NCBI GenBank assembly: GCA_018064505.1
Contig: JAGHVC010000024.1
Span: forward strand, 28,845 to 92,844
Length of the DNA stretch: 64,000 nt
Source: Candidatus Minthosoma caballi
Lineage (GTDB): Bacteria > Bacteroidota > Bacteroidia > Bacteroidales > Bacteroidaceae
Reading direction: 5' to 3'
Shown here piece by piece: positions 15,897-32,972 of the stretch. The position numbers and the translations under genes are program-made. Below the pieces are notes generated by a model that searched no databases, was not told the DNA's origin, and saw nothing but the letters and a program-made list of their open reading frames with translations. Position 1 is the first letter of the stretch. Each line of letters opens with the position of its first letter.

Positions 15897-15920
15897 TATC
15901 CTACACATTATTTATATATA

Positions 15921-15951
15921 AAAAGGACTCGCCGTTTGGTGAGTCCTTTTT
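15921..15951 (+). terminator. Rho-independent terminator of the etf-acd operon
   Basis: AAAAGGACTC-gccgtttggt-GAGTCCTTTT followed by T. The stem is 10 bp including the A/T extension, with a U-tract. Confidence 0.75.
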
Positions 15952-16061
15952 GTGTGTCGATAATGAATTAATCATTTAGCTATACGAGGGGATTGCAATT
16001 TGTCAAATTGGGGAAAACATAAAAGAGCGAGTTGCAGAATTATGGTTTACCTTTTAACTTA

Positions 16062-16892: not shown

Positions 16893-16898
16893 GTGTAT

Positions 16899-18233: not shown

Positions 18234-18256
18234 GTTGTCTTCTGTATAATTTTATG

Positions 18257-18264
18257 CAAAATTA
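18257..18264 (-). promoter_or_regulatory. Candidate -7 box (TAATTTTG) for the methyltransferase-VanW operon
   Basis: The reverse strand reads TAATTTTG, 24 nt upstream of the ATG at 18233. Confidence 0.45.
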
Positions 18265-18358
18265 GTAAAAAAGCACTGTAACAAGTACATTTACGCCTAT
18301 ATTTTAGCTGTTTTGCACAAAGACAGCACAAAAAACGCATTATATCAAATAATGATTG

Positions 18359-18366
18359 TAAATTTG
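18359..18366 (+). promoter_or_regulatory. Candidate -7 box (TAAATTTG) for the secreted-protein island
   Basis: Matches TAnnTTTG, 39 nt upstream of the ATG at 18405. Confidence 0.45.
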
Positions 18367-18404
18367 CAAAAATCAAATAAACAATTAACAAGAAAACATA
18401 TACA

Positions 18405-19133
18405 ATGAAAAAAATTATCCTTCCCCTTTTTGCGGCACTCATGCTTTGCTCATGCGGCAACACTACCAGCAAAAGCGCTGGTGAATGCGATTCAGACTCG
18501 GTTGCATCTTTTGAAGAAACAGAAGAATGCGAGGCAAACCTCAACTACATGCACCCTGACACTCAGATGTTTGAACTCTTCGGCATGGTAAAGAGCATGA
18601 CTCTCACCAAGTATTACGATGTCAGCTCCGAAGGAGAAATTAAGGACAAGAGCAACAGCTTTGTCGAGAAGAAGCTTTTCTTCACGCGCAGTGGCGAATT
18701 TGACATTTATAACAAGGATTTCGAATGGAGGCTCACTAATCCACAGTTCGATCGTAGCAGCGAACTGAAAGTCTCAAAAGTCACTTGGTATGTCGAGGAC
18801 TTTGACATGAATCTCTCCGACACATACGAGTACAACAGCCGCGGCATGGTCAGCAAATTGGAGAGCGAGGGAGTAGAAAACTTCAGCACCATTACCTTCA
18901 AGTACGACAACAATACAAACCTCATCTCCTCTCACGATGAATCTGCGGGCGAAGGTTCCATTTTCTGCACAGACATCACATACACTATCCTCGAAAAAGA
19001 TGCCCAGGGCAACTGGACAAAGCGCTTGTTGAAGTGCGACGAGAAAACAGGCGACGATGACGGATCTGGCAAGTACACAGAATCAAGCACATACTACGAA
19101 GTCGAAACTCGTGAGATTGAGTATTACGAATAG
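18405..19133 (+). CDS. Hypothetical lipoprotein
   Basis: 242 aa with a lipoprotein signal (MKKIILPLFAALMLCSCGN). It contains weak YD-repeat-like strings (TYEYNSRGMVSKL, TFKYDNNTNLIS). The gene is AT-rich. Confidence 0.55.
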   Translation: MKKIILPLFAALMLCSCGNTTSKSAGECDSDSVASFEETEECEANLNYMHPDTQMFELFGMVKSMTLTKYYDVSSEGEIKDKSNSFVEKKLFFTRSGEFDIYNKDFEWRLTNPQFDRSSELKVSKVTWYVEDFDMNLSDTYEYNSRGMVSKLESEGVENFSTITFKYDNNTNLISSHDESAGEGSIFCTDITYTILEKDAQGNWTKRLLKCDEKTGDDDGSGKYTESSTYYEVETREIEYYE

Positions 19134-19245
19134 ATCTTGTTTTGATTCGTTTACAAGCAGAATTTTGTTGCTGTTCTCTATTGGATGTACAGCAAAAACA
19201 TAAAAAATCAACTTATATAATTATAAATAATCACAAAAAAACACT

Positions 19246-19917
19246 ATGAATATGAAACGCGTATTTTTAGCTATACTTATCTGTTCAATCAGCACACTTG
19301 CTTTCGCTCAAAACATTGATGTAAAGAAAAAGGGAGGCATTAATCCTAAGGAATGGAAGGCAAATGAATCTGCCACTATCAGCATCAATCGTATTCCAAC
19401 GACTATTGAAGAATTCAAGCAGGTTCAAAGCGAAATCGGCACTACACCAGAAGGCGCTGTCATGCTTCAGCTATTGGCAATGGAAATGTACAATCAAAAT
19501 CCGACTGTAGGAACTGAGTGTATCAAACTCAACAACATACAATCAAACCAATCATCAGTTCTTAGCCGCATGCCTGAGATTTTCAGCAAAAAGGACATGA
19601 ACTATGCTCGTCCTCATCTCGTAGCAACATTCTTCAATGGCTCTACACCTCAGAATGGTTTCAACCCAAAGAATCCATACACTATCCAAGTACGCACTCG
19701 TGCAAATATGCAGTATCAGCGCTCTGAAATGATGAGGGGCTATGTTCTATACCTTGAAGTTTACAGTTCTGGTTATCAAACAAGCCCATGGCGTTCTGTA
19801 GAAGTAATTAAGCAGAAAGGCAGCGAGTTCTTCCAAGTCAGCAACTCCCCTGCACTCTATGTACAGTGCATGGATGTTGACTTCGACAGCGACAGAGACT
19901 ATGAAGGGCTAAAGTAA
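19246..19917 (+). CDS. Hypothetical secreted protein
   Basis: 223 aa with signal peptide MNMKRVFLAILICSISTLAFAQN. No family recognised. Confidence 0.5.
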   Translation: MNMKRVFLAILICSISTLAFAQNIDVKKKGGINPKEWKANESATISINRIPTTIEEFKQVQSEIGTTPEGAVMLQLLAMEMYNQNPTVGTECIKLNNIQSNQSSVLSRMPEIFSKKDMNYARPHLVATFFNGSTPQNGFNPKNPYTIQVRTRANMQYQRSEMMRGYVLYLEVYSSGYQTSPWRSVEVIKQKGSEFFQVSNSPALYVQCMDVDFDSDRDYEGLK

Positions 19918-19959
19918 CCGTCGTAATTCATAGGTTTCACTTTTATATTTATAACAACA

Positions 19960-20874
19960 ATGGTAAAAAACATCTTCACATACCTATCTATAATATTGCT
20001 CGTTTCTTGTAGCAATCAGGTTTCGACTACTAGTATCAATGAAAACGACAGCCTCTGCGTTGCCGACACCATTGTCACACTAGGGGACGATAAGCAAGAT
20101 TTCTCTATTGAATTCAAGACTTACCAGAAACAAACACTTTTGAAGGCAGACTATGAGCGAAAGAATATCTACCACGAGAATTCCATAACTCTTCAATGGC
20201 CTGTGAAAGCACAAGGTTTCAATCTTGACTCACTCCAGCATGCCCTCTCTGAATTAATGTCAGAAGGAAACATTGAAGATCCTCAAGTGTTTGTCGACGA
20301 ATGGGCAAAAGGAATGTGGGCAGAACATGGATGGGGATGGAACTATGAAATAGTTGACAGTCGTGAAGAAGAGGCAAACAATGACGAAAACGATGATGAC
20401 GATGAAAACGATGATGATGACGATATTGTACAATATGACACTGATGCTTCATTAGAACTGACTTGCATTGATTCCGACTCCATTAATCATCTCATCACCT
20501 TCATGAAATCTTACTCCTACAACAACGGTTGCGGCTTAGGTTCATGTATTTATTTCGGATTCGATCATTTGGTATATGACTATGTTAACTGTAAAAAAGT
20601 GGAACTTAGCGACATCATCGCAAACGAGAAAGAAGCCATTAATCAGTTAAAAAAACAATGTATAAACAGTGATCAATACAGTGGGCTCGAAGGCCTCAAG
20701 GAACTTACTGAGCTCCCTACCAATTTCCGTATAAGCGACAATGTGATATTTTTCCAGTTCGAGAAATACGAGATATCATACGGAGCCGATGGATGCCCTG
20801 AATTAGGTTTTGATGTCAGCAAATGTCCAAACCTCCTTACTGACTACGGAAAGCAAGTATTTAGGATAAAGTAA
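19960..20874 (+). CDS. Hypothetical lipoprotein with an acidic D/N/E tract and a possible DUF3298-like C-terminus
   Basis: 304 aa. The lipobox is LLVSCSN. The acidic run is EEEANNDENDDDDENDDDDD (about 20365-20425). The C-terminal FFQFEKYEISYGADG resembles the DUF3298 motif F.F..YE.APYA.G. Confidence 0.5.
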   Translation: MVKNIFTYLSIILLVSCSNQVSTTSINENDSLCVADTIVTLGDDKQDFSIEFKTYQKQTLLKADYERKNIYHENSITLQWPVKAQGFNLDSLQHALSELMSEGNIEDPQVFVDEWAKGMWAEHGWGWNYEIVDSREEEANNDENDDDDENDDDDDIVQYDTDASLELTCIDSDSINHLITFMKSYSYNNGCGLGSCIYFGFDHLVYDYVNCKKVELSDIIANEKEAINQLKKQCINSDQYSGLEGLKELTELPTNFRISDNVIFFQFEKYEISYGADGCPELGFDVSKCPNLLTDYGKQVFRIK

Positions 20875-20940
20875 TATAATTTCGAAGACTATTCCCCATT
20901 AACTTAATACAAAAAAAGAACAATAACAACACCTATAGAT

Positions 20941-22020
20941 ATGAAGAAAGCATTCATTATAGCACTTGCTCTCATCATGCAACTCAGTGCTTTTGCGGAC
21001 GGGAACCCTATGTGGAATAACTATGGCAAGACCGTACAAGTAAAAGGAGGAGCAGGCATAGAACAATTCGTCGAAGCTATATTAGGCTATAAACCAGACG
21101 ATTGGTCAAGAGACCCTGTATATGACAAGCGAAACGGATTCTTCCACTATTACGAGGAAGGCAGCGGACACATAGAATACTATGTCAGCTACTGGAATCG
21201 CAACGACGGCAAGAAGCTTGTCATCATGTCATACGACGAAGCCGACTTCGGCAAACCAATCACACCACAGTCATCTCCATGGGGATACTACAGCACCACT
21301 ATGGTTGCCGACAATGACATGGAGTCTGAAGCGGAAGGCGTCAATACTGATACAGGCTTCCGAGCTTATCTCTACGACGAGGCAAAGAAGCAGCTCACGC
21401 CATTGACTACTCCCCCATTCAATGGATTTGACAATCCTGTAAATAATCACTATCTGCTCATGCTGCCTCAGCAGGGAAAGGATATCCGAGTTCGCGAGCA
21501 GAAAGACGAGGCAGGATTCTTCGTTTACCACACACTAAAATGGAATGGAATGACTTTCGATTTCATAAGAGAAGGAAATGTTGTAGCATCATTCTTTGGC
21601 ACAGAGGCAAATATTAATATCCGAACTGCTCCTAATGGGAGAATAGTATATACTACCCCAAATACAGGTGAATACAGTTTTGATATCGTTAAGATCGAGA
21701 ATGGCTGGTGCCTTATAGATGGAACAAGCATCTATGAAAACGAAGAAAGCACTATGATTGAACTTAACGGCTCCAACTCTGGATACTGGGTTCACTCTTC
21801 ATGCATTGGTGCAAAAGGAGGAAATGGAGATGGAGCTGTCACACTTCTTGCCTCGCCAGATGACAATGCCAAGGTTGTGTACAAGAGCAACGACTACACA
21901 ATCATTGAGCCAATTGAAATTCGTGGCGAATGGGTTAAAGTACGAGCTCGTGTAAGCAAAAAAGTTGGTTGGATAAGAATATACGACATGTGTTCTAACC
22001 CTCTCACAAACTGCTGCTAG
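20941..22020 (+). CDS. Hypothetical secreted protein with possible C-terminal SH3b-like repeats
   Basis: 359 aa with signal peptide MKKAFIIALALIMQLSAFA. Two SH3b-like segments are NIRTAPNGRIVYT...GWCLI and LLASPDDNAKVVYK...GEWVKVR...GWI. Confidence 0.45.
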   Translation: MKKAFIIALALIMQLSAFADGNPMWNNYGKTVQVKGGAGIEQFVEAILGYKPDDWSRDPVYDKRNGFFHYYEEGSGHIEYYVSYWNRNDGKKLVIMSYDEADFGKPITPQSSPWGYYSTTMVADNDMESEAEGVNTDTGFRAYLYDEAKKQLTPLTTPPFNGFDNPVNNHYLLMLPQQGKDIRVREQKDEAGFFVYHTLKWNGMTFDFIREGNVVASFFGTEANINIRTAPNGRIVYTTPNTGEYSFDIVKIENGWCLIDGTSIYENEESTMIELNGSNSGYWVHSSCIGAKGGNGDGAVTLLASPDDNAKVVYKSNDYTIIEPIEIRGEWVKVRARVSKKVGWIRIYDMCSNPLTNCC

Positions 22021-22120
22021 ACCATCCTACAAATACTACTAACATAGCAGACTTTACAGGTGCGAACAATAACCATCCTAAAGATGGAAAACAAGCATTA
22101 AAACAATAAACCTTATCAAT

Positions 22121-23896
22121 ATGATAAAGAATATATTAACAATAGTATCCTTCTTCGTAGCCACTACAGGCTTTGCGCAAAACGATGCATGGAGCAAGGT
22201 GACTAACTGGAACAAATACTTTGAAAATGACCTCGAGAACATAGTGGCCTATGCCCTTTACGATATCGACGGTGACGGAATCAACGAAGCATTCGTGCGC
22301 GACGAAGCCAACTGCTACGGCTGTCTCTCATGTGGTGGTGGAGAAATCAAGGCCGTCACAAACTCAATCATGACTACTGATCTTTATTACTGTAAAGGCA
22401 TACCATATGTCATCCATAAGGGAGGTTGCGGAACTGGTTGTTTCCACAAAGAAATATGCAAGATAGAGAAGAGTAAGCTTACAACGCGTTTGCTTGACAT
22501 TGCATATTATGGCCCTGAAGGTCAGGAAGAGCACGAATGCAGCACTCACAAGACTGGAGAGGACAAAGACATCAGCTATGCCCAATTTCAAAAGCTGGCT
22601 CCAAAATTGAATGATTTGAAACACATGACAACTCTCAAATGGATTCCTGTTACTTCTGTTTCAAACACTCCTAAAGCTGCTCCTACATCTGACCTTGCCA
22701 CACTTCACGCTGTCAATGGCGATACTGTTATCATCAAGGATTCAAAGGGATACCTCTATCAGATTATGAGTGACGCAAGCGTTGGTGTTGCTCCAGGCGG
22801 TGCATACTCTGGCGACATAGTCATTCCGTCACAGATTAAGTATGAGGGACGCACACGCAATGTCACTACTGTTCGCCGTGGAGCTATGTGGAAAAAAGAA
22901 GGAACCTCAAATATTGGCAACATAACTTCCATTACCCTTCCTGAGACAGTCACTCTTGTCGGTGCAGATGCCTTTCGTGGCAATGCCAACCTTACTGCTG
23001 TCAACTACAGCGATAAGACTCGCATTGAGGTACGCTCATTCTGGGGATGTCCAAAGCTTCAGATTGAGCAGAATGAACCTGCATATGCATTTACCGAACC
23101 TACAGATTATTCAGAAGAGAATAGCGCTGCTACACGCGAAGCCTTCACACGAATGTACTATCCAACTGAGGAGCCTGACATGAAGGTTTCTCGATACAAT
23201 TGGGCATTCTTCAAATACAACCATAGCGGCATTGCCTTCGACTCTTGGAAAAACTTTGACAGCGAAAATGCTATGGCTTGTTTCTGTTGGCGCATAAAGA
23301 ATGTCAAGTCAGGCCTATTTCGTCTTCTGAATCCTGACAATGTAGAGCCTATGTTCAAGGGGTATCTTGAAGGCTCTGAGAATGTTATGCTTGCAGACAA
23401 TAACTATGTTGCCACACATGAGTTCCCTATGTTCAGTCGCTGGATATGGGGTGAGCAAGAGAAATCAATGCCTAAAACTTTCGTAGCAGCTATGGAAAAG
23501 AAGTACGGTCGCAAGGCTAAGTACAGCTATGAGTGCGGCAAACTCCTATATTCTACAAACGAGCAACTTGCCATCACTGAGTTTGTCATCACAAACCATG
23601 AGTGCATGTATGTTCTCTCTTGGCTGAAAGACGGCAAAGAAGTGTGCAGTTATATGGACAAGCGTCCTGTTGAGCCTGGATATGAGGAATTCAGCGTCTG
23701 GAATGTTGACGACGAGGGAGACTATGGCATTCCAAACATTATGACTATTGCTCGTGACGAGAAAGGCAACATCGAGCTCTTCCTCTTCCACGGAGCACCA
23801 GAGAGCTTCAACTTCATGCATCTTGCTCAGAGAGGCAACAAGTTTGAACAGATTGGTGATGATCATTGGTACAACTGGATTGACAGTCCGGAGTAA
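22121..23896 (+). CDS. Secreted protein with a BspA-type leucine-rich repeat segment
   Basis: 591 aa with signal peptide MIKNILTIVSFFVATTGFAQ. It has an FG-GAP-like DIDGDGINEAF string. The central segment IPSQIKYEGR..VTTVRRGAMW...ITSITLPETVTLVGADAFRGNANLTAVNY...IEVRSFWGCPKL resembles LRR_5 (BspA-like) repeats. Confidence 0.5.
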   Translation: MIKNILTIVSFFVATTGFAQNDAWSKVTNWNKYFENDLENIVAYALYDIDGDGINEAFVRDEANCYGCLSCGGGEIKAVTNSIMTTDLYYCKGIPYVIHKGGCGTGCFHKEICKIEKSKLTTRLLDIAYYGPEGQEEHECSTHKTGEDKDISYAQFQKLAPKLNDLKHMTTLKWIPVTSVSNTPKAAPTSDLATLHAVNGDTVIIKDSKGYLYQIMSDASVGVAPGGAYSGDIVIPSQIKYEGRTRNVTTVRRGAMWKKEGTSNIGNITSITLPETVTLVGADAFRGNANLTAVNYSDKTRIEVRSFWGCPKLQIEQNEPAYAFTEPTDYSEENSAATREAFTRMYYPTEEPDMKVSRYNWAFFKYNHSGIAFDSWKNFDSENAMACFCWRIKNVKSGLFRLLNPDNVEPMFKGYLEGSENVMLADNNYVATHEFPMFSRWIWGEQEKSMPKTFVAAMEKKYGRKAKYSYECGKLLYSTNEQLAITEFVITNHECMYVLSWLKDGKEVCSYMDKRPVEPGYEEFSVWNVDDEGDYGIPNIMTIARDEKGNIELFLFHGAPESFNFMHLAQRGNKFEQIGDDHWYNWIDSPE

Positions 23897-23914
23897 CATC
23901 GGAAAAGCCAATTT

Positions 23915-23948
23915 GGGCTTGAAATAAACACAGAAGCCCTTTCTTTTC
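23915..23948 (+). terminator. Putative terminator of the secreted-protein island
   Basis: GGGCTT-N13-AAGCCC followed by TTTCTTTTC. It lies directly before the left end of the inverted-repeat cassette. Confidence 0.5.
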
Positions 23949-24250
23949 GATTTTCACTTCCCCACATACCCTTTCATCGGTAAGCGATTGGGGATTAACA
24001 AACTACACAGGGTAAGTGTCCATGCCGGCACTTACCCTTTATTTTCCCCAATACTTACCCCGAACACTTTCACTAACCGCAACCCACCACTTCTAAAAGC
24101 TAAGGCGGCCAAAAGTCCGTTCGAGCAGATATGGCGTTTTTTTGCGTCAAATCGCAACTAACGACAGAAAAATAACACCGAGACACATTACGCAACATCA
24201 TTGCGTAAGATGCCTCGAATGTATAATCAGCGGATAGTGGAACCTATCCT

Positions 24251-24580
24251 TCAAAAAACAGCTGCCACGCGTCGCAATGCAGATAGTCGCTGGAGGAAAG
24301 TAGGGCTATTCTTTGTTTGTTGTAAATTATAGTCCATTTGAATCCTGAGCAGAGGAGCAGCGTTGACTCCAAGCACAGCCTCTATCAGCAACGCCATTTC
24401 TGGAGTCAGCTGTCGTTTTTTGTTCAGCATCTCATTAAGCTGAGAATATGACACACCTATCTCTTTCGCAAACTGTCGCTGCGAAATCCGTCTAAATTCA
24501 AGCTCGTCCTTAATTATCTCACCAGGGTGCGTTGCAACAAATGGTGTTGCGTCATTAGCAGAAAACTTTTGTGTTGCCAT
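24251..24580 (-). CDS. higA: HigA-family antitoxin (XRE-type HTH)
   Basis: 109 aa. HPGEIIKDELEFRRISQRQFAKEIGVSYSQLNEMLNKKRQLTPEMALLIE matches the HigA/VapI HTH pattern. It lies 6 nt downstream of the toxin gene. Confidence 0.85.
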   Translation of the reverse strand: MATQKFSANDATPFVATHPGEIIKDELEFRRISQRQFAKEIGVSYSQLNEMLNKKRQLTPEMALLIEAVLGVNAAPLLRIQMDYNLQQTKNSPTFLQRLSALRRVAAVF

Positions 24581-24586
24581 ACTATT

Positions 24587-24904
24587 TTAGCTATAATGAT
24601 TTGACAATTCTGTAATGTTGCAGATTGTGGCAATCTCCTTGCCATCTTCCAATTCTTCCTTAAACTCTATGCGGTATTGGTCATTGACTCTGACAGAAGA
24701 TAACCCCTCCTTGTCTCCATGCAGATGCTCATAGTGCAGTGACCCATATTTAGCAAGCCCCATCACATTGTCTTCAGCCGTCATCAGTTTTATCACGCGT
24801 ATGTATTTGTTGACTATCTGTGGCTGAAAACGATGTTTCTTATCATTCACCTTTCCTTTCGTATAAAGGTCATAGAGATATTCTTGCTCAAAGTTTACCG
24901 TCAT
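24587..24904 (-). CDS. higB: HigB-like toxin (RelE/ParE superfamily, plasmid maintenance killer type)
   Basis: 105 aa. LHYEHLHGDKEGLSSVRVNDQYRIEF resembles the HigB motif (L.G...G..S.R.N.Q.RI.F). The toxin-first gene order is typical of higBA. Confidence 0.8.
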   Translation of the reverse strand: MTVNFEQEYLYDLYTKGKVNDKKHRFQPQIVNKYIRVIKLMTAEDNVMGLAKYGSLHYEHLHGDKEGLSSVRVNDQYRIEFKEELEDGKEIATICNITELSNHYS

Positions 24905-24926
24905 ACGCTAAATTATGAATTTCATG

Positions 24927-24934
24927 CAAAGATA
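24927..24934 (-). promoter_or_regulatory. Candidate -7 box (TATCTTTG) for higBA
   Basis: The reverse strand reads TATCTTTG, 22 nt upstream of the higB ATG at 24904. Confidence 0.45.
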
Positions 24935-25136
24935 GCAAATTCATCTTCTGTTCGCAAATTTGTTAACACTTTTATGTCTAGGACACTTTGAAAAGTTACC
25001 AAAACACAGAATCTTTGCAGGATACATAATCAATCGAGGCATCCTGTGCTAAAAAAATAGCAGGGATGCCTCTGATAGAATTATGCGTATAGGAAAGACT
25101 GGATTGACTAAACCTTGGAGCGAATCAATGGAGCCT

Positions 25137-25166
25137 GTCCCCCATGATTTTGTCCCCCATGATTTT
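25137..25166 (+). repeat. Perfect 15-bp tandem duplication (GTCCCCCATGATTTT x2)
   Basis: Read directly from the sequence: units at 25137-25151 and 25152-25166. It lies in the non-coding part of E1. Confidence 0.9.
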
Positions 25167-25208
25167 CCCTACAACCCGACCTCTTTCCCAACTCACAGGG
25201 TGTGAGTT

Positions 25209-25290
25209 GCGGTTCGCATAAGGTAAGAGAAGCGGTTCATAAAGGGTGTAAGACGCGCTTCTCAAAGGGCGTGAGATTGAGGTTCCAAAA
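25209..25290 (+). repeat. Degenerate ~23-bp direct repeats containing GGTAAG-like motifs
   Basis: GCGGTTCGCATAAGGTAAGAGAA / GCGGTTCATAAAGGGTGTAAGAC / GCGCTTCTCAAAGGGCGTGAGATT / GAGGTTCCAAAAACG. The AAGGGTGTAAG-type cores resemble the GGGTAAGT motif of the element ends. They are preceded by the hairpin CAACTCACA-GGG-TGTGAGTTG. Confidence 0.6.
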
Positions 25291-25317
25291 ACGAAGATTG
25301 CACCACTTTTTCCCTCT

Positions 25318-25412
25318 CAAAACCTTGCGCCCGTCACGCTTGATCGCTTACGCCTTGTAAGCCTTATCGCTTACGCCCGAAAAGCGATAAGGCTTCACGG
25401 GCAGAGACTTTT
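25318..25412 (-). repeat. Y-shaped palindromic intergenic repeat, copy C2 (inside E1)
   Basis: TTGCGCCCGTCACGC ... GCTTACGCCTTGTAAGC ... CCTTATCGCTT-N9-AAGCGATAAGG ... CACGGGCAGAGAC. Its ends are the reverse complement of the C1 and C3 ends. Confidence 0.75.
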
Positions 25413-25693
25413 CAGTCTGATTCTTGGAGGAGCCCCCTCTAGCTCCCCCAGAGGGAGGATAGCCATTCGGAATGACATCAGCAATACTGCCATGGTACTC
25501 TCTGTGGATGGTAAGTGTCAACATTGGTACTTACCCTATGCAACTCATTCATTTCCTACAAATTAGAAGCAAAAGGGGGGTAAGTAGGGAAGTAGAAATG
25601 GAAAAACACAAGAATGCTGAGTAAAATGATGGGAAAACGCTATTTTTGCATCGAAAACATTGACAAATGCGAGGAAAAGCGGAAAAAAGAATG

Positions 25694-25701
25694 TAACTTT
25701 G
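25694..25701 (+). promoter_or_regulatory. Candidate -7 box (TAACTTTG) for the rhamnogalacturonan lyase gene
   Basis: Matches TAnnTTTG, 51 nt upstream of the ATG at 25752. A second candidate, TATTTTTG, lies at 25641-25648. Confidence 0.45.
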
Positions 25702-25751
25702 CAAAAATAACGGAACTTATGCACGAAATTAACTTTACTCAACACACCATC

Positions 25752-28190
25752 ATGAAAAGATTACATATATTTGCAGCATCACTGCTGCTTTCATCTATCG
25801 GAGCAACTGCGCAAGTGACTCCTATCAGCCAGATGGAGAAACTTGACCGTGGCGTTGTGGCTCTGCCATCGCAGACGAGCGGCATGTTCGTCAGCTGGCG
25901 TTTTCTTGGCACTGACGATGCCGACAACACCTCATTTGATGTTCTGCGCGACGGAATAGCTGTGGGCAAGAATATCACTAAGTGCACTTGCTATAATGAT
26001 GCTATCGGAAAATCAACAAGCGGATATCAAGTAGTGACAAAAGTGGATGGAGTGGCGATTGACACCACTGACATCGTGAAACCTTGGTCACAAGTGTATA
26101 AGACGCTGAAGCTTGACCGTCCAAAAGAAGGTGACTTAGGAGAAGGGACTTACACTTATTCCCCTAACGACATAAGCGTGGGTGATGTTGATGGCGACGG
26201 AGAGTATGAATTGTTTGTGAAATGGGATCCTTCCAACTCCAAAGACAACTCTCAAAGTGGCATCACTGGCAATGTGTATCTCGATTGCTACCGTATGGAT
26301 GGTACAAAGCTGTGGCGCATCGACCTCGGAAGGAATATCCGTGCAGGCGCTCACTACACACAGTTCATGGTGTATGACTTCGATGGCGATGGCCGTGCAG
26401 AGATGATGTGCAAGACCGCTCCTGGCAGCAAGGACGGAATGGGCGAATATGTGAATCAAGCAGCTACCGACACGAAAATCAAAGCTGCATCGAATTCAAA
26501 GAGCTGGGTAGTGAGTGGCGGCCGCATTGATGGAGGTCATGAATATCTCACTGTGTTTGAAGGCTCTACAGGCAAAGCGATACACACCATTGCTTACAAC
26601 CCAAACCGCAATGCTTCTTCCACTCTTAATGAGGCAACCGGCACTTTCAATTGGGACGACAGAAGCGGAAAGAGCGACAAGGGCAACTACGGCAACCGCG
26701 GCGAGCGATTCCTTGCTGCCGTAGCCTCGCTTGATGGCCCTGATGCTCCGCCTTCGGGCATCTTCTGCCGTGGATACTACACCTTTGCTTATGTGTGGGC
26801 TGTAGATTTCGACGGCAAACAGCTCAAACCTCGATGGCTGCATAAGTCGGCATCTAAGACAAGCTACAGCGTGGTTGACTACACAGAGAGCGCAGCTGGA
26901 AAGACAAAGACATACACAGCACCGGCAAGCAAGTCGGGCTCGGGCAAGAACACCCTCTATGCCAACGGCAATCACAACATCTCTGTAGCCGATGTTGATG
27001 GTGACGGAAAAGACGAAATCATCTACGGCTCAGCAGCTCTCGATGATGACGGAAAATTGCTTTACAGCGTTGGCTTTGGTCATGGCGATGCTATGCACCT
27101 CGGCGACCTCGACCCTACTCGCGAAGGAATGGAAGTGTTTCAAGTGCATGAAGAAAAAGGCACCTACTCGTGGGATGTGCACGATGCTGCCACAGGCCAG
27201 ATACTCTTCAAGGGCGGCAATAGCGGAGTGGACAACGGCAGAGGCATTGCTGCACAACTCTCATCAAGCCACTATGGCTACTATTTCAGTTCGAGCGACG
27301 ATCGTCAGCAGCGCAGCGCTGTGACTGGCAAGGCAGTGTCTTCGGGCAACACATCGCTCAACTTCCGCATCTATTGGGACGGCGACCTTCAGGATGAGCT
27401 CTTCGATGGCGGCAAGATTGACAAATGGAACGGCAGCGGCACAACGCGCCTCTACATAAAGGGAAAGAATCCGTACGACTACAACTCATCAAGCACTTGC
27501 AACAGCACGAAGTCTACACCAAATCTGCAAGCCGACATCTTTGGCGACTGGCGCGAAGAGATAATATTGTGGAACTCGCAAGACGGGGCAACGCTCAACA
27601 TCTTCTCTGCCAACACCACCACAAACTACCGAGTACCTACGCTCATGCACGACCACACCTACCGCATGGGCATTGCATGGCAGAATGTGGCATACAATCA
27701 GCCGCCACATCTTGGCTACTATCTGCCCGACATGTTCCGTACCACTTTCAAGCCAAAGGATGAGCACTCGCTGGAACAGACCGTGGAGTGTGGCGACAGC
27801 ATTCTCGCCATGACAACAGCATACCTCAACTGCACCTCGATAGCCGTTGATTCAACCTACACCCCTACGGGAAACATAAAAGGCCTGGATGAAGCATTCC
27901 AGATGAAGCGCGACCTTGCCACTCACTCAGTCATCATCACGGGAAAGCCTGAAGTGGCTGGCGACTACACCATAGTGCTGCGCGGCTCTGGCAACTCCAA
28001 CTTTGCTGGCAATGCATATCACACCCTCACCATCCATGTTTTGCCATCGGTGGGCATAGCCTCTATACAGACCAAATCCACCCCAGTCATCTACGACCTC
28101 AGCGGCCGCCGAATGACAGGCAGCCACCTTCCATCAGGAGTGTATCTGCTGAAAGAAAACGGCGTGGTGAAGAAGATAAGGATAAAATAG
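25752..28190 (+). CDS. Rhamnogalacturonan endolyase, polysaccharide lyase family 11 (YesW-like), with a T9SS C-terminal sorting domain
   Basis: DVDGDGEYELFVKWDPSNSKDNSQSGITGNVYLDCYRMDGTKLWRIDLGRNIRAGAHYTQFMVYDFDGDGRAEMMCKTAPGSKDG is near-diagnostic for PL11 (B. subtilis YesW/YesX). The signal peptide begins at MKRLHIFAASLLLSSIGATAQ, which puts the start at 25752 rather than the track's 25614. The C-terminal VIYDLSGRRM....LPSGVYLLKENGVVKKIRIK fits the T9SS type A CTD pattern. Confidence 0.88.
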   Translation: MKRLHIFAASLLLSSIGATAQVTPISQMEKLDRGVVALPSQTSGMFVSWRFLGTDDADNTSFDVLRDGIAVGKNITKCTCYNDAIGKSTSGYQVVTKVDGVAIDTTDIVKPWSQVYKTLKLDRPKEGDLGEGTYTYSPNDISVGDVDGDGEYELFVKWDPSNSKDNSQSGITGNVYLDCYRMDGTKLWRIDLGRNIRAGAHYTQFMVYDFDGDGRAEMMCKTAPGSKDGMGEYVNQAATDTKIKAASNSKSWVVSGGRIDGGHEYLTVFEGSTGKAIHTIAYNPNRNASSTLNEATGTFNWDDRSGKSDKGNYGNRGERFLAAVASLDGPDAPPSGIFCRGYYTFAYVWAVDFDGKQLKPRWLHKSASKTSYSVVDYTESAAGKTKTYTAPASKSGSGKNTLYANGNHNISVADVDGDGKDEIIYGSAALDDDGKLLYSVGFGHGDAMHLGDLDPTREGMEVFQVHEEKGTYSWDVHDAATGQILFKGGNSGVDNGRGIAAQLSSSHYGYYFSSSDDRQQRSAVTGKAVSSGNTSLNFRIYWDGDLQDELFDGGKIDKWNGSGTTRLYIKGKNPYDYNSSSTCNSTKSTPNLQADIFGDWREEIILWNSQDGATLNIFSANTTTNYRVPTLMHDHTYRMGIAWQNVAYNQPPHLGYYLPDMFRTTFKPKDEHSLEQTVECGDSILAMTTAYLNCTSIAVDSTYTPTGNIKGLDEAFQMKRDLATHSVIITGKPEVAGDYTIVLRGSGNSNFAGNAYHTLTIHVLPSVGIASIQTKSTPVIYDLSGRRMTGSHLPSGVYLLKENGVVKKIRIK

Positions 28191-28201
28191 CAAAAAGAAA
28201 C

Positions 28202-28240
28202 AAAATGCAACCTTCAGCAATGGGGGTTGCATTTTGTTTG
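28202..28240 (+). terminator. Rho-independent terminator after the lyase gene
   Basis: AAAATGCAACC-N12-GGTTGCATTTT followed by GTTTG. Confidence 0.75.
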
Positions 28241-28250
28241 CTAACTTAGC

Positions 28251-28281
28251 TTTGCTACTTTTGAAAAAATCAGTAACTTTG
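28251..28281 (+). promoter_or_regulatory. Bacteroides-type promoter (-33 TTTG, -7 TAACTTTG)
   Basis: TTTG at 28251-28254, a 19-nt spacer, then TAACTTTG at 28274-28281. This places the S1 element in the 5' leader of the oxidoreductase gene. Confidence 0.55.
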
Positions 28282-28290
28282 CAGACGGAA

Positions 28291-28380
28291 TCAGGACAAT
28301 GACGAAAACGATGACTCGAGAAATCGTTTAATTGATTATACGATTAATCGGGAAAACGATGACGATAACGACGACTAACG
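28291..28380 (+). promoter_or_regulatory. S-element copy S1 (AT-rich repeat with a TTAATYG palindromic core and hexamer-periodic flanks)
   Basis: GGACAATGACGAAAACGATGACTCGAGAAATCGTTTAATTGATTATACGATTAATCGGGAAAACGATGACGATAACGACGAC. By eye it is near-identical to S3 across the core. It lies between the promoter and the coding start. Confidence 0.7.
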
Positions 28381-29558
28381 ACCAATCAACTTCCACACTC
28401 ATGACAACAGAAGTTCTCATCATAGGCGCTGGCCCTGCTGGCAGTGCGTGTGCAATATCCCTGCAAAAAGCGGGGGTGGACTGCATCGTGGCAGACAAGG
28501 CAGCATTTCCACGCTTCAAGCTGTGCGGCGGACTCATCACCCAGAAAGGGCAAGACTGCCTTCGCGAGGTGCTGGGCAACGACGCCTACGAGCAATGCAT
28601 GGAAGTATGCGTGAGAGGCAGAGAGCAATATTTCGCACTGTGGGATGAATGCAAACGCATAGTGAGAGTGAAGCTCGACAACAACATCGTGCTCATCGAC
28701 CGCCCTACGATGGACAACTGGCTCGTGCAGCACTACAAGTCGCTGGGAGGCAGAATCATGGAGGGCAACGGAGTGAAAAGCATCGACTTTGCCGCCCATG
28801 TGGCAGTGCTCGAATCGGGCGAAGAAGTGAGCTACAAGAAGCTCGTGGCAGCCGACGGAGTGCACAGTCCCGTGGCACACATGCTCGCCGATGCCGACAA
28901 GCGATACAAGCTCAACAAGAAAGGGTGCTTCTGCCTTGAAGTGTTCGTCGATGAGAAAGATTGCGACATTGAGGATGTGAACATCCATTTCAACCTCGTG
29001 CCAAACTTCTACACATGGGCATTCAAGAAAGGCAACCAAGTGGCAATAGGATTGGGCAAGCTGACAACCGACAAGATTGACATCAAAGAAGTGCTGATAG
29101 ACTACATGAAGCGAATGGGAGTGAGACAAGGAGCAGAACAGGCATCTGCCCCCATCCGCGGAGCCGTCATCCCTTCCGAAGTGCGCCAAGCCGAATGGAA
29201 GAGCGCCGATGTGCTGTTTGCTGGCGACGCAGGCGGATTCGTCGAGCTGCTCACCTACGAAGGCATCTACTACGCCATCCGCAGCGGAAGCTATGCAGCC
29301 CAGAGCATCATCAGCGGCACATCCTACACACAACTCGTGCGTCCTATGCACCGCAAGATGCAGTACGGCAGCTTCTTCCAGAAGTTCATCTACTGGAAGC
29401 CATTCCTCAACATCATGTGCAAGTACGGCAGCACACACGGCGCCTTTATAGCCAAATTCTATGCCGACAACATTGACAACATACCATCCAAGCCACTCTG
29501 GAAGCAGATTGCCATTGTGCTGATGAAAACCGTGAGAGTGGCAGTGAAAAGGAAGTGA
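28359..29558 (+). CDS. FAD-dependent oxidoreductase, geranylgeranyl reductase-like family
   Basis: The dinucleotide-binding motif VLIIGAGPAGSACA...VADK is followed by the GGR-family RFKLCGGLIT string. The start is uncertain: TTG 28332 (track), ATG 28359 (context AAAACGATGACGATAA is shared with the SGNH gene start at 33881), or ATG 28401 (MTTEVLIIGAGPAG). Confidence 0.75.
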   Translation: MTITTTNDQSTSTLMTTEVLIIGAGPAGSACAISLQKAGVDCIVADKAAFPRFKLCGGLITQKGQDCLREVLGNDAYEQCMEVCVRGREQYFALWDECKRIVRVKLDNNIVLIDRPTMDNWLVQHYKSLGGRIMEGNGVKSIDFAAHVAVLESGEEVSYKKLVAADGVHSPVAHMLADADKRYKLNKKGCFCLEVFVDEKDCDIEDVNIHFNLVPNFYTWAFKKGNQVAIGLGKLTTDKIDIKEVLIDYMKRMGVRQGAEQASAPIRGAVIPSEVRQAEWKSADVLFAGDAGGFVELLTYEGIYYAIRSGSYAAQSIISGTSYTQLVRPMHRKMQYGSFFQKFIYWKPFLNIMCKYGSTHGAFIAKFYADNIDNIPSKPLWKQIAIVLMKTVRVAVKRK

Positions 29559-29581
29559 AAGAAAAGCAAGAAGCAAGAAAT

Positions 29582-30337
29582 ATGGAAAAAGAAACAGAAC
29601 ATACAACAGCACACACTCCGAGAACTTTGGTCGATGTTCACACCCACACCATAATGTCGGGCCACGCATTCAACACCGTGATGGAGATGATAGCCGCAGC
29701 TCAGGAAAAAGGACTGAAGATATTCGGCATCACCGAGCACGGACCAGGCATACCAGGCACATGCCATCCGCTCTATTTCCGCAACACCCATGTAGTGCCT
29801 CGCCAGTGGGGCGACATGCGCCTGCTGATGGGCGCCGAGATGAACATACTCGACACCAAGGGCACTCTCGACCTCGACGACTTCCACTGCAGCCTACTCG
29901 ACATACGCATTGCCGGCATACATCAGCTGTGCTGGAAAGGAGGCACAATAGAAGAAAACACCGACGGTATGGTAGCAGCCATCCGCAACAAATGGACTCA
30001 CATCATCTCACATCCAGGCGATGGCACAGCCGACCTGCTGTTCGAGCCCATAGTGCTTGCCGCAAAAGAGTCGCACACCCTGCTCGAGATCAACAACAGC
30101 ACATTCAAGCCATCGCGCGGCAAGACAGCCAAGGCACGCCCCCTCAACCTCGAGATTCTCCGTCTCTGCAAGCAATACGAAGTGCCTGTCATTCTCGGCA
30201 GCGATGCCCACATCAGTTTCGACATTGCCCGCTACGACTTCGTCCTCCCCATGCTTGCCGAAACCGAATTCCCCGATGCACTCGTCATGAACGACAAGCC
30301 AGAACTGTTCCTGAAATACCTTAGCATTGACGAATAA
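29582..30337 (+). CDS. PHP-domain phosphatase (YcdX-like)
   Basis: VDVHTHT...GITEHGP...GAEMNI...IAGIH...ISHPG...LEINNS...GSDAH is colinear with E. coli YcdX metal-binding motifs. The track start (GTG 29555) overlaps the upstream stop, so I prefer ATG 29582. Confidence 0.85.
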   Translation: MEKETEHTTAHTPRTLVDVHTHTIMSGHAFNTVMEMIAAAQEKGLKIFGITEHGPGIPGTCHPLYFRNTHVVPRQWGDMRLLMGAEMNILDTKGTLDLDDFHCSLLDIRIAGIHQLCWKGGTIEENTDGMVAAIRNKWTHIISHPGDGTADLLFEPIVLAAKESHTLLEINNSTFKPSRGKTAKARPLNLEILRLCKQYEVPVILGSDAHISFDIARYDFVLPMLAETEFPDALVMNDKPELFLKYLSIDE

Positions 30338-30338
30338 T

Positions 30339-30361
30339 AAAACGATGACTATGACAAATCG
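30339..30361 (+). repeat. Truncated S-element fragment S4
   Basis: AAAACGATGACTATGACAAATCG, compared with AAAACGATGACTCGAGAAATCG in S1. It lies directly after the PHP gene stop. Confidence 0.45.
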
Positions 30362-30702
30362 CCATACGGAACAAAACAAGAAGGAACATCACTATAGTGC
30401 AAAAGAACACAAAATTGTTCTGTTGGGTAACACACGAGTTTGTTCGGATTGAAATTCTATAATTTCTTAAATAGAACGATTTGTGGACACAAAATTAGTC
30501 AGAGCATTATTAATAGAGAATTTTAACTGTTTTTTTTGGGGGGCAAACCTTAACACATCTATTGACTGTTTGGGAAAAATAATTACCAATATGAGAAAAG
30601 TAAGTTTTATCTTTACTGCTTTGTTTCTTTTCCCTATTCATCTCATAGAAATACTTAACATCAAAAAGACTCTTCACCAACTTTGATTTCTCTCCCAAAA
30701 TT

Positions 30703-31228
30703 CCCTTTTTCTACTTCCCCACTTACCCTTTAGGTCATAACCAACAGATAATTAAGGCATTACAAGGGGTAAGTATCCTACTTCACACTTACCCTTTACT
30801 TACCCTGAACCTACCACATGGAGCAAGCTGCAAAGGGTTGCTGTTTTTGTGTTTCTGTTTCGTCGCAATCGAGTTGTTGACAAAACTATGTTTACAGGGG
30901 CTTCAGCATAATGTTGTGACGGCAACTGCGGTAATTTGATTGCGGTTCTTCCGTAATGTTATTCCTGCAACTGCCGTAATGATGTTACGGTTCGTCCGTA
31001 ATTGTTTTACGGAAGTTTCAGGAAAAGTTTTACGGCGGAGGGCTGCATTGTGGAGAATATGAATACAAGGAAATGAGAGCATGAACATCTCTTTTGGGGC
31101 CATATAGGGTAAGTCTGGGGTAAGTAAAGGGTAAGTGTGAAGCAGGACACTTACCCTATGTATTTCATTTATTCTCAATCATTTGCAGCCTAAAGGGTAA
31201 GTGGGGAAGTAGAAACACAGAAAAAGGG
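30703..31228. mobile_element. Inverted-repeat element E2 (about 0.5 kb, MITE-like, no credible ORF)
   Basis: A perfect 27-bp terminal inverted repeat: TTTCTACTTCCCCACTTACCCTTTAGG (30708-30734) and CCTAAAGGGTAAGTGGGGAAGTAGAAA (31189-31215). The imperfect inverted-repeat arms extend to about 115 bp. There are nine GGGTAAGT/ACTTACCC copies. The subterminal hairpins are at 30767-30794 and 31129-31156. Confidence 0.75.
30922..31006 (+). repeat. Tandem ~45-bp direct repeat in the centre of E2, with CCGTAA-N5-TTACGG hairpins
   Basis: GCAACTGCGGTAATTTGATTGCGGTTCTTCCGTAATGTT (30922-30960) and GCAACTGCCGTAATGATGTTACGGTTCGTCCGTAATTGTT (30967-31006). Hairpins CCGTAATGATGTTACGG and CCGTAATTGTTTTACGG are present. 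Confidence 0.7.
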
Positions 31229-31278
31229 TTTCTACGCAAACCTTTGGTGCAGAATGTGAACACCTATATTCCCCCACC

Positions 31279-32865
31279 TTAGAACTGGAAATATATGAAT
31301 GGCTGCACATCGCTGCTCTTTATCTGGATGACAATGAAGATGAGGATGATGAGGATGAGGGCTTTGAGGAGGAGCGGCATCTTGATGATGAGCGACCTGC
31401 TCTTGTCTGTCCATGAGTCGGGAAGCAGGTGGAGCACATAGCCGAGGAGCATGAGGGTGGCTACTGCCCAGTAGGATTCTACCCACTGCATGAACACTTG
31501 GGGCTGGAACTGGGTGAGAATCTGAGTGAACACCTGATTGGCTATGCCGAAGCTCTGGGCACGGAATAGCACCCAGCATGCTGCCACGAGATGGAAGGTG
31601 ATGAGGGTGGAGAGGGCTGTGAGAAGAAGGAGGGGGAATTTACGGTTATGGTTTATGTTATCGCTCACTGACTTCTTGCCTGGCAGGTAGGTGAGAGGGC
31701 TTGCTGCTGGACAGATGCTGTGCCAGATCTTGTCGATGCAGAGGAAGAGGCCATGCAGTCCTCCCCAGAGGATGAAGTTGAGGGATGCGCCGTGCCATAA
31801 GCCTCCGAGGAGCATGGTCATGAGCAGGTTGAAGTACTGACGGAACTTGCCGTGGCGATTGCCTCCCATGCTGATGTAGAGGTAGTCTTTGAGCCACGAT
31901 GAGAGGCTGATGTGCCAGCGACGCCAGAACTCGGTGATGCTGGCGGATTTGTATGGGCTGTCGAAGTTCTTGGGGAACTGGAATCCGAGCAGGAGGGCTA
32001 TGCCTATTGCCATGTCGGAGTAGCCTGAGAAGTCGCAGTAGATTTGCAGGGTGTAGCCATAGACGGCGAGGAGATTTTCCACTCCGCTGTAGAGGTCGGG
32101 CTGGTCGAACACTCGCTCGACGAAGTTGACGCTGATGTAGTCGCTGATGACGGCTTTCTTGAAGAGGCCTGCCATGATGAAGAATACGCCTGAGCCGAAC
32201 ATCTCGTTGCTGATGTGGAGGGGACGGCGTATCTGGGGGATGAAGTCGCGGGCACGAACGATTGGTCCTGCCACGAGCTGGGGAAAGAAGGACACATAGA
32301 AGGCGTAGTCGAGCAAGCGGCTGAGGGGCTTGATGTTGCCTCGATAGACATCTATGGTGTAGCTGAGCGACTGGAATGTGAAAAATGAGATGCCCACGGG
32401 GAGGAATATGTCGCGGGGCTGCCATGCCACGCCTTGGAGGTAGCTTCCTGTGATGGCTGGCGGCACATGGAATCCGTAGCTGGAGAGGATGGTGCAGATG
32501 GTCTCGCCGAGGAAGTTGGTGTATTTGAAGAAGACGAGGAGACCGAGGTCGAGCACGAGAGACAGGAGCACGAGGGTCTTGCCCAGTGCGCCCTTCCCTA
32601 CTCCGCTGAGGGCTTTAGCTATGAAATAGTCGGTGATGGTGACCAAGGCAAGGAGCACGAAGAAGAGTCCGCTGCTTTTGTAGTAGAAGAAGTAGGAGAA
32701 CAGCGTGACGAAGAGTATGCGCAGCGTGTCTGCTTTGCCGAGGAGGCTGTAGATGAGCGAGAAGCCGAGAAACAGGAAGAGGAAGATTCCGCTGATGAAT
32801 ATCATCGGACTATCTGGCTGGTATATGAATTGGTCTATGACCCTTTGAAAATCTATGTCGAACAT
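31279..32865 (-). CDS. MBOAT family O-acyltransferase (AlgI/PatA/DltB-like)
   Basis: 528 aa and polytopic. FWRRWHISLSSWLKDYLYISMGGNRHG and LLGGLWHGAS are the MBOAT signature regions, including the conserved His. Confidence 0.88.
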   Translation of the reverse strand: MFDIDFQRVIDQFIYQPDSPMIFISGIFLFLFLGFSLIYSLLGKADTLRILFVTLFSYFFYYKSSGLFFVLLALVTITDYFIAKALSGVGKGALGKTLVLLSLVLDLGLLVFFKYTNFLGETICTILSSYGFHVPPAITGSYLQGVAWQPRDIFLPVGISFFTFQSLSYTIDVYRGNIKPLSRLLDYAFYVSFFPQLVAGPIVRARDFIPQIRRPLHISNEMFGSGVFFIMAGLFKKAVISDYISVNFVERVFDQPDLYSGVENLLAVYGYTLQIYCDFSGYSDMAIGIALLLGFQFPKNFDSPYKSASITEFWRRWHISLSSWLKDYLYISMGGNRHGKFRQYFNLLMTMLLGGLWHGASLNFILWGGLHGLFLCIDKIWHSICPAASPLTYLPGKKSVSDNINHNRKFPLLLLTALSTLITFHLVAACWVLFRAQSFGIANQVFTQILTQFQPQVFMQWVESYWAVATLMLLGYVLHLLPDSWTDKSRSLIIKMPLLLKALILIILIFIVIQIKSSDVQPFIYFQF

Positions 32866-32890: not shown

Positions 32891-32972
32891 TTTGAGCTGT
32901 CATCGTTATCGTTATAGTCACCCCGATTAATCGATTAAACGAATTATCGATTTCTCGAGGCATCGTCTTCGT
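32891..32972 (-). promoter_or_regulatory. S-element copy S2
   Basis: In gene orientation: ACGAAGACGATGCCTCGAGAAATCGATAATTCGTTTAATCGATTAATCGGGGTGACTATAACGATAACGATGACAGC. It lies between the SGNH stop (32973) and the MBOAT start (32865). Confidence 0.7.

Follow-up and report, generated by a model that had tools for sequence, protein, structure and literature searches.

Inverted multi-site modules border a higBA toxin-antitoxin segment and a gene-less neighbour in Candidatus Minthosoma caballi

The analyzed stretch of 64,000 nucleotides from Candidatus Minthosoma caballi (hereafter the window) contains two segments, E1 (23944-25605) and E2 (30701-31222), that both carry inverted modules of about 115 bp at their two borders. 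Within E1, only two genes are convincing, namely higB (24587-24904, minus strand), encoding a RelE-like toxin of 105 aa (PF05015 at 4.6e-10), and higA (24251-24580, minus strand), encoding an Xre-type antitoxin of 109 aa (HTH_3, PF01381, at 2.6e-10). The higBA pair reported inside E1 by the first-pass annotation is supported by these Pfam matches and by the names used at NCBI (RelE/ParE toxin and HigA antidote). The toxin gene comes first in the operon, the higB-higA gap is 6 nt and each of the two ORFs is intact in every strain; as read from the sequence, this is the gene layout of HigBA type II toxin-antitoxin pairs. The operon also appears to have its own TAnnTTTG box, as previously proposed: TATCTTTG (24927-24934, minus strand), 22 nt 5′ of the higB ATG, reads as a Bacteroidetes-type -7 box and is flanked by the inverted repeat ATGAATTT/AAATTCAT. 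This repeat is probably the HigA operator and TATCTTTG the promoter box. HigA was considered as the protein binding the 8-mers of the end modules and rejected, since its likely operator is unrelated to their motif GGGTAAGT. A terminator-like hairpin (hairpin A, 24160-24250, minus strand) lies downstream of higA and is ~85% identical to a hairpin located 3′ of a 748-aa cargo gene in strain L002, and hairpin B (25034-25074), with the stem GAGGCATCC/GGATGCCTC, lies upstream of the higBA promoter. Tenacibaculum plasmids carry relatives of higB (48% identity), as do phage-labelled faecal contigs, where the nucleotide identity is about 70%; no end module was found in the faecal contigs carrying this higBA-like DNA.

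The modules consist of 8-mers of the ACTTACCC type at offsets 0, +8, +54 (inverted), +74, +85 and +96, hence up to six 8-bp sites per module: a tip pair, followed by two inverted sites that form a hairpin and by two further sites in one-helical-turn phase. This spacing is kept across the modules of E1, of E2 and of a further copy from a second organism (L001, see below). The tips read TTTCTACTTCCCCACTTACCC, inspection of the E1 and E2 ends revealed no shared TG/CA at these tips, and the hairpins have an 11-6-11 structure, e.g. GGGTAAGTGTC CATGCC GGCACTTACCC. Identity between modules reaches 94% in the 8-mer columns versus 55% in the spacers, as would be expected of candidate protein-binding sites.

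The left module of E1 (23944-24066, plus strand, outer tip towards the inside) has sites at 23956, 23964, 24010 (inverted), 24030 and 24053, and its hairpin (24009-24038) has a computed folding energy of -10.8 kcal/mol (z = -5.2). The right one (25509-25605, minus strand, outer tip at 25605) has sites at 25586, 25578, 25529 and 25509 and lacks those at +85 and +96; it is truncated just inside the hairpin by a strain-specific fragment of the 'Z' repeat family (25425-25509). Complementarity between the outer arms of E1 (23944-23971 and 25578-25605) is 82% over 28 nt, and about 70% between its two whole modules. E2 is bordered by a left module (30701-30820, plus strand) and a right module (31100-31222, minus strand) that keeps six of six sites, including three GGGTAAGT at 11-bp phase, its 115-nt arms being 78% complementary. 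Each end of E1 and E2 has one GGTAAGT-N12-ACTTACC motif, and these four are all that the 64 kb contain (0.01 expected); if up to 3 mismatches are allowed, four copies of the 20-mer tip GGGTAAGTGGGGAAGTAGAA are present (0.00 expected), and GGGTAAGT is found 15 times (0.7 expected), 14 of these 15 lying within E1 or E2. These data confirm that the ends of E1 are inverted copies of one module and that the same module bounds a second element at 30.7-31.2 kb; more generally, all sequence features that had been described for this DNA were recovered at, or within 2 nt of, their given positions. E1 had also been said to begin directly after a hairpin terminator: the hairpin is present (23917-23941), but a simple scan did not call it a terminator. 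E2 is a ~0.5-kb segment devoid of genes (none of its ORFs matches a Pfam family) that contains iterons; the genes on its two sides are convergent, with their 3′ ends facing E2. Because the genes converge on it from both sides, a regulatory role of E2 is unlikely.

Both segments contain arrays of short repeats. In E1, four 23-bp units (25197-25290, plus strand) confirm the iteron array noticed earlier, but the GGTAAG core attributed to these iterons is found in one unit only, the others having GGGTGT(G/A)AG. A single inverted iteron-like fragment (24070-24087, minus strand), 92% complementary to 25202-25214, lies just inside the left module. The array of E2 (30906-31035, plus strand) has 22-23-bp units of the CCGTAA-N5-TTACGG type (also 2 x 45 bp). 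In both pairs, the tips of the modules face outward, and E1 and E2 have the same polarity, with plus-strand iterons beside the right module in each. Given this common polarity, we rejected an intramolecular replicative inversion of the lyase-FAD-PHP genes, which would have left E1 and E2 as its two inverted copies. The collinearity of MBOAT-FAD-PHP in L018 indicates that FAD-PHP is inverted here relative to MBOAT; however, in L019-L023, ACAD-FAD-PHP is oriented as in the window, which also opposes the inversion reading. E1 further contains the 15-bp perfect tandem previously noticed (25136-25165, plus strand), whose unit is single-copy in other strains, and, as also noticed, a copy of the separate palindromic family 'Y' (25307-25414), of which two more copies lie in the window (9080-9187 and 53660-53767). 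The window also harbours several further families of small intergenic repeats (Y, W and Z); the 'Z' family flanks a PDDEXK_3 gene in L014. An Rfam search of the 23-32 kb region returned nothing credible.

A search of 185,579 species genomes with the tip pattern gave one match only, L001, which belongs to another gut MAG. Its module is 78-85% identical to those of the window, lies at an unrelated locus and adjoins a homologous iteron array (79% identical to that of E1, ungapped). Like E2, L001 has modules and iterons and is devoid of the toxin-antitoxin pair. Among the collections searched, the family thus has three known loci (E1, E2 and L001). The modules form a genuine repeat family whose architecture is conserved and whose copies are found in the gene-less E2 and in a second organism. 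No module copy was found in two metagenome scans nor in plasmid and phage collections. Hairpin matches in viral contigs were judged to be due to chance, those of L008, L012 and L007 being located in coding regions and those of L009-L011 corresponding to a perfect palindrome beside a tRNA gene. A profile built from the spurious translations of the four module copies retrieved only repetitive-protein noise from 1.84 billion proteins. As for a partner enzyme, none of the about 40 window ORFs scanned (a set without PriA, the ETF genes, acyl-CoA dehydrogenase and DnaE) matches a transposase or recombinase family in Pfam, in agreement with the earlier statement that the window has no recombinase. 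Furthermore, exact-pattern searches of the species-genome, metagenome, viral, plasmid and phage collections revealed no transposase-linked copy; since exact patterns were required, diverged partners could have been missed. Beyond the window, the family is thus represented by one further module but by no full-length copy with a transposase, and it is extremely rare in public data.

Iterons with a period of 22-23 bp and a toxin-antitoxin pair are typical plasmid maintenance features. On this basis, E1 might be a decayed integrated plasmid or integrative element, whose iterons would derive from an origin, higBA from a stability module and the modules from an attachment or partition region, and the occurrence of higB relatives on Tenacibaculum plasmids and phage-labelled contigs would agree with such an origin. 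We regard it as very improbable: rep, mob, par and integrase genes are absent, no similarity to any of 72,556 plasmids was detected, E2 and L001 share the modules and iterons without the pair, and mirror-image modules with conserved spacing are unlike the leftovers of attachment sites.

A comparison of orthologous loci, suggested by the first-pass annotation, revealed variation of the interior cargo but neither empty sites nor polymorphism in the position of the ends. L002, L014, L015, L003 and L004 have the left end of E1 at the same place as the window; the right end is likewise unchanged in position in L002 and L013, and so is E2 in L016; no empty site or presence-absence polymorphism of E1 or E2 was found among the Candidatus Minthosoma caballi assemblies covering an end. 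In related species (L018, L019-L023 and L006), the modules are missing at the corresponding genes, but these loci are rearranged; likewise, the loci of PHP, lyase and GroEL relatives compared for clean empty sites are rearranged or non-syntenic. No direct repeat of 4-11 bp that could be a target-site duplication was found at symmetric offsets of 0-25 bp from the tips of E1 or E2. Inside E1, three strain haplotypes split at 25424, just past the 'Y' copy, and L002 carries 3.75 kb with three genes at the position of 25425-25509. The interior cargo therefore differs between strains, which is consistent with a mobile element. The 1-kb higBA block (24203-25207) is almost invariant, with 0-1 substitutions between strains, compared to 2-5% in its flanks and 1.7-3.4% in the E1 modules. 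This suggests that the toxin-antitoxin pair probably has no shared history with the ends, which weakens the idea of a cassette moving as a unit with the pair as addiction cargo.

The same comparison bears on two other explanations. First, the modules could be site-specific recombination sites, with the hairpin (two inverted 11-bp arms and a 6-bp spacer) as core, the direct 8-mers as accessory sites and a tyrosine recombinase encoded elsewhere, E1 and E2 then being invertible or exchangeable. The inner half of the module, an inverted pair plus two direct copies, does resemble the 116-bp IRS of Tn4430 (PMC2847244), recombinase-less modules located between inverted Xer sites, some with toxin-antitoxin genes, are known (PMC6449649), and both the 11-6-11 hairpins and the lack of target-site duplication are compatible with such sites. 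The strain differences located in the hairpin spacer (three of three in E2, one of four in the left module of E1) also point in this direction. However, the interior has one and the same orientation in every assembly spanning a junction, which at assembly level is not the behavior of an inverton, and the breakpoints between strains (25424, and a position just inward of the hairpin) spare the hairpin spacer. Nor would such sites account for the two 8-mers at the tip, which lie 46 nt away from the hairpin on its outer side, or for the abrupt drop of similarity beyond them; moreover, no recombinase gene is present nearby and the GC skew gives no replication-terminus signal suggestive of a dif region. 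We therefore hold this explanation to be rather unlikely. A replication terminus or dif region, which the convergent genes at E2 and the 11-6-11 hairpins could evoke, was rejected as the GC skew is negative on both sides, without any switch.

Second, the modules could be fixed cis-elements of the host, i.e. arrays for an architectural, regulatory or partition-like chromosomal DNA-binding protein, that were never mobile, with higBA residing in a variable intergenic island. The contrast between conserved sites and diverged spacers is what long selection in place would produce, and E2 differs between strains by 0.6% only, versus 4.1% in the adjacent non-coding DNA, which fits a function in place better than a dead relic. 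The rarity of the family, the lack of target-site duplication, empty site and autonomous copy, and the presence of other small intergenic repeats in the window would also agree with host elements. Nevertheless, both module pairs are strictly tip-outward around iteron arrays of equal polarity, E2 lies between the 3′ ends of convergent genes, a module with iterons is also present at an unrelated locus of another organism, related species having the same genes lack the modules, and the E1 modules change at the rate of non-coding DNA, 8-mers included (23966 A>T). These observations make the host-element explanation unlikely, marginally more so than recombination sites.

Since the same modules bound the higBA segment and its gene-less neighbour, E1 has the appearance of a non-autonomous transposon-like element that is both rare and old. 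We thus tentatively propose, with a confidence falling just short of even, that E1 and E2 are old fixed copies from an undescribed Bacteroidales family of transposon-like elements that are non-autonomous and have multi-site ends, higBA being a passenger. The strong divergence of the modules outside their sites implies that any activity is old. By analogy with the ends of Tn7, Mu and Tn402-type elements, a single transposase or recombinase, encoded at another genomic location, would occupy the 8-mer sites in several copies, and this trans-acting enzyme would once have moved both E1 and E2. E2 would be the minimal form, made of end modules and of iterons next to the right end, whereas the higBA pair, lying between the left module and the iterons of E1, would be a passenger whose arrival or replacement was probably a separate event, the small repeats Y and Z having invaded E1 later. 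In Candidatus Minthosoma caballi, the two copies seem to be fixed today, and the present variation would reflect gain and loss of DNA inside E1 rather than its movement. The mobile non-autonomous toxin-antitoxin cassette initially proposed is thus partly supported: the repeat family, the lack of a recombinase among the scanned ORFs of the window and the variable cargo stand, but no target-site duplication, empty site or autonomous copy was found, higBA probably has a separate history and movement of the element itself is not supported.

A more speculative variant, which we judge unlikely albeit somewhat less so than recombination sites, is that the six-site modules and iterons are the cis-sites of an uncharacterised transposition or recombination system of Bacteroidales that makes no target duplication, and that they delimit inverted-repeat islands swapping cassettes (higBA, surface-protein genes, the PDDEXK gene) between strains. 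If so, it would be a chromosomal exchange platform unlike integrons and dif modules and outside the known IS families. If the modules are true transposon ends, they would point to a trans-acting enzyme of gut Bacteroidales that recognises multi-site ends, and toxin-antitoxin pairs and surface-protein genes would travel in, or collect within, non-autonomous elements of this order. If they are host binding arrays instead, they would define a new conserved 8-bp motif. The locus in any case marks a strain-variable island in an uncultured lineage from horse, pig and human gut. Given this rarity and the apparent inactivity of the family, only a modest impact can be expected as long as no partner protein has been found.

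The ends of Tn7, Mu and Tn402/Tn5053 carry several copies of a short motif at defined spacing, with sites at the tip and a subterminal cluster. The modules of E1 and E2 have a similar layout, and by analogy their repeated motif at set spacing may suggest the assembly of a multi-subunit complex; the likeness is one of layout; E1 and E2 have no TG/CA tips, no 5-bp duplication and no genes for a transposase, an ATPase or a target selector. Non-autonomous inverted-repeat elements carrying passenger modules are documented, and TIMEs mobilise functional modules (PMC4133298). E1 and E2 resemble MICs, MITEs and TIMEs by (i) inverted-repeat ends without any internal transposase, mobilisation in trans being presumed, and (ii) the coexistence of a minimal gene-less form (E2) and of a larger form with a passenger (E1). 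Of two other hallmarks of MICs and MITEs, the target-site duplication was not found at symmetric offsets from the tips, and the cognate autonomous element was not found by exact-pattern searches. TIMEs have 38-bp Tn3-type ends (GGGG...TAAG), 5-6-bp duplications, copies that are 99-100% identical and a proven transposition, whereas E1 and E2 have 115-bp multi-site ends whose tips read differently and copies that are 70-85% identical, without detected duplication, cognate transposon or recent activity. Toxin-antitoxin pairs are also documented within Tn3-family transposons (PMC7157771), where, as in E1, a type II pair lies beside repeated candidate binding sites (res there, iterons here); these transposons encode a transposase and a resolvase, whereas E1 has neither and its higBA block probably has a separate strain-level history. 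The dif modules of Acinetobacter (PMC6449649) are likewise gene modules, often toxin-antitoxin pairs, with inverted 11-6-11 sites and no recombinase of their own. However, they are found on plasmids and their 28-bp sites are related to the chromosomal dif, whereas in E1 and E2 the hairpin is only a part of a 115-bp module and the strain breakpoints lie outside it. Finally, the IRS of Tn4430, the site of TnpI, has almost the same size as the modules (~116 bp) and combines an inverted core (IR1-IR2) with accessory repeats (DR1-DR2), 9 bp being common to all of them (PMC2847244), but it is the single internal site of an autonomous transposon, whereas the modules of E1 and E2 form mirror-image ends with two extra tip motifs each.

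Both elements described in the first-pass annotation are present: E1 (positions 23944-25605), which carries a higBA toxin-antitoxin pair and is bounded by inverted copies of one end module, and E2 (30701-31222), 0.5 kb long and gene-less, which is bounded by the same module. The feature is real and beyond chance: each of the four element ends carries one copy of the hairpin pattern GGTAAGT-N12-ACTTACC, which the 64 kb hold nowhere else (0.01 expected in all), the 20-nt tip occurs four times in the window at up to three mismatches (0.00 expected), and 14 of the 15 window copies of GGGTAAGT lie inside E1 or E2 (whole-window expectation 0.7). In each module, 8-mers of the ACTTACCC type sit at constant distances from the tip: direct at 0 and +8, inverted at +54, where the site pairs with that at +74 to form a hairpin, and at +74, +85 and +96 with an 11-bp phase. 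Site spacing is constant across modules, and identity over five independent modules is 94% in site columns versus 55% in other columns, a contrast that is partly circular since the conserved motif itself served to define the sites. As single-stranded DNA, four of the five modules form a stable hairpin (z -3.4 to -5.5). In E1 the right module is missing its two innermost sites, and its hairpin adjoins a partial copy of a different repeat family, Z. Inside the right end lie iterons, four of 23 bp in E1 and five or six units of 22-23 bp in E2, all on a common strand, so that both elements share one polarity; for this reason, the idea that E1 and E2 arose by replicative inversion was rejected. A rival reading takes the modules as paired recombinase sites, with a layout like that of the Tn4430 IRS (PMC2847244) or dif modules (PMC6449649). 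A Pfam scan of about 40 ORFs of the window gave no match to a transposase or recombinase family, in agreement with the first-pass annotation. A replication-terminus reading of the locus was rejected.

E1 carries intact higB (PF05015) and higA (HTH_3) genes as cargo, the toxin gene preceding the antitoxin gene, and the predicted -7 box of the pair (TATCTTTG) lies 22 nt upstream. The identical proteins in NCBI, from Candidatus Minthosoma caballi (a MAG species of the horse gut; PMC8957277), are named RelE/ParE toxin and HigA antidote, and in clusters at 90% identity the HigB of E1 is represented by this locus alone. The other reported contents of E1 were all found, namely the 23-bp iterons, the 15-bp perfect tandem (25136-25165), which is a strain-specific duplication (single copy in L002, L014 and L015, three same-species assemblies), and one copy of the palindromic Y repeat of about 108 bp (9080-9187, 25307-25414 and 53660-53767).

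The same-species assemblies compared are 97.8-100% identical, and E1 is present in every one covering its place (left end in L002, L014, L015, L003 and L004; right end in L002 and L013); E2 is present in L016 and its start in L017. Variation between strains lies inside E1: three haplotypes split at the same base, window 25424 (L002 7624; L014 6197), just past the Y palindrome. Beyond it follow 85 bp in the window; 3.75 kb in L002, with genes for three proteins (Por_Secre_tail, 139 aa; Lcl_C, 748 aa; and one of 89 aa); and no less than 6.2 kb in L014, which include a PDDEXK_3 gene and a gene for a 1418-aa protein. This PDDEXK_3 gene is flanked by the Z repeat (…CCGTTCGGATAACATCAGCAATGCCGCCAAGGCAC…; window 25425-25509, L014 4680-4830 and 5310-5460). 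Between-strain divergence is 0.4-1.8% in genes and 1.7-3.4% in E1 modules; the Y copy of E1 is the most diverged segment (5-10%). Across the block from hairpin A through higA, higB and the promoter to hairpin B (24203-25207), no substitution separates the window from L002 and one separates it from L014/L015, whereas the DNA on both sides differs by 2-5%. These near-zero substitutions imply a history younger than, or swept separately from, that of the ends, as though the block had been swept recently or acquired separately. Over 80 nt, the terminator-like hairpin that follows higA (24160-24250) shares about 85% identity with the one behind the 748-aa cargo gene of L002 (7120-7210); two different cargo units have the same tail. 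E2 differs between strains at three of 511 positions, against 4.1% in adjacent non-coding DNA; all three substitutions fall in the 8-nt loop of its right hairpin (31139-31144; L016 1795-1801; GAAGCAGG versus TGAGGAGG), which suggests a single multi-base event within a palindrome. According to another rival reading, the modules would be host binding arrays held by selection.

The search for further copies proposed in the first-pass annotation yielded one module in another MAG and none in two metagenome scans, three viral scans or blastn against plasmids and phages. A third rival reading sees E1 as a plasmid remnant. The single match of the tip pattern among 185,579 species genomes is L001, a gut MAG contig in which an iteron array with 79% identity to the E1 array comes after one module; no second end is visible. 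A frameshifted ISL3-family element with inverted repeats of about 40 bp (L001 1905-3510) is inserted beside the module, 350 bp further in, and truncates the next gene (glycoside hydrolase). Judging by how its MAG collection was designed, L001 probably differs in species from the window; its "Rikenellaceae" assignment is doubtful because its GroEL is 92-97% identical to those of Bacteroidaceae and Prevotellaceae MAGs. The few matches to the module pattern in viral collections were judged to be chance. Three related viral contigs carry a perfect 23-bp-stem palindrome (…GGGGTAAGTGATCA…) directly after a tRNA gene (L009 100-170, L010 10715-10790, L011 about 117-143) and terminate about 120 bp past it; its likeness to the module hairpin is probably fortuitous.

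Related species carry no module (L018, L019-L023 and L006), which makes the modules specific to the window's lineage. Their gene orders differ (MBOAT-FAD-PHP-DUF4491, then ACAD on the opposite strand, in L018; ACAD-FAD-PHP, then another gene, in L019-L023; FAD-PHP-CotH in L006), so E1 and E2 lie in a rearranged region and these loci are not clean empty sites. Set against L018, FAD-PHP (28332-32865) is inverted relative to MBOAT. From ACAD to FAD (15897-28331) the window holds about 12.4 kb (VanW to a 591-aa gene, E1, lyase), and L019 a gap of 143 bp. The W repeat of about 74 bp (28302-28375, 32899-32972 and 33888-33947) directly precedes each of the genes FAD, MBOAT and GDSL-302, in constant orientation relative to the gene; the MBOAT-FAD gap of L018 is only 13 bp. 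The empty sites and target-site duplications sought as signs of insertion did not appear, either in relatives or strains for the former or at the ends of E1 and E2 for the latter.

Of the earlier mobile-cassette reading, the inverted-repeat ends of a repeat family stand, and movement is still hypothetical. The strict tip-outward pairing, shared polarity and conserved site spacing, together with a gene-less member between convergent genes and a copy that another organism has at an unrelated locus, favor transposon-like ends that putatively bind one protein in several copies. We hold this reading tentatively, at slightly less than an even chance, because of the lack of a duplication, an empty site and an autonomous partner, the extreme rarity of the module and the slow between-strain change of E2. 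Overall, E1 and E2 are best classed as a new family within the non-autonomous inverted-repeat elements, of undemonstrated mobility and with higBA as a passenger. Toxin-antitoxin pairs embedded in transposons are already known (PMC7157771), and in function E1 and E2 come closest to mobile insertion cassettes and to TIME composites (PMC4133298).
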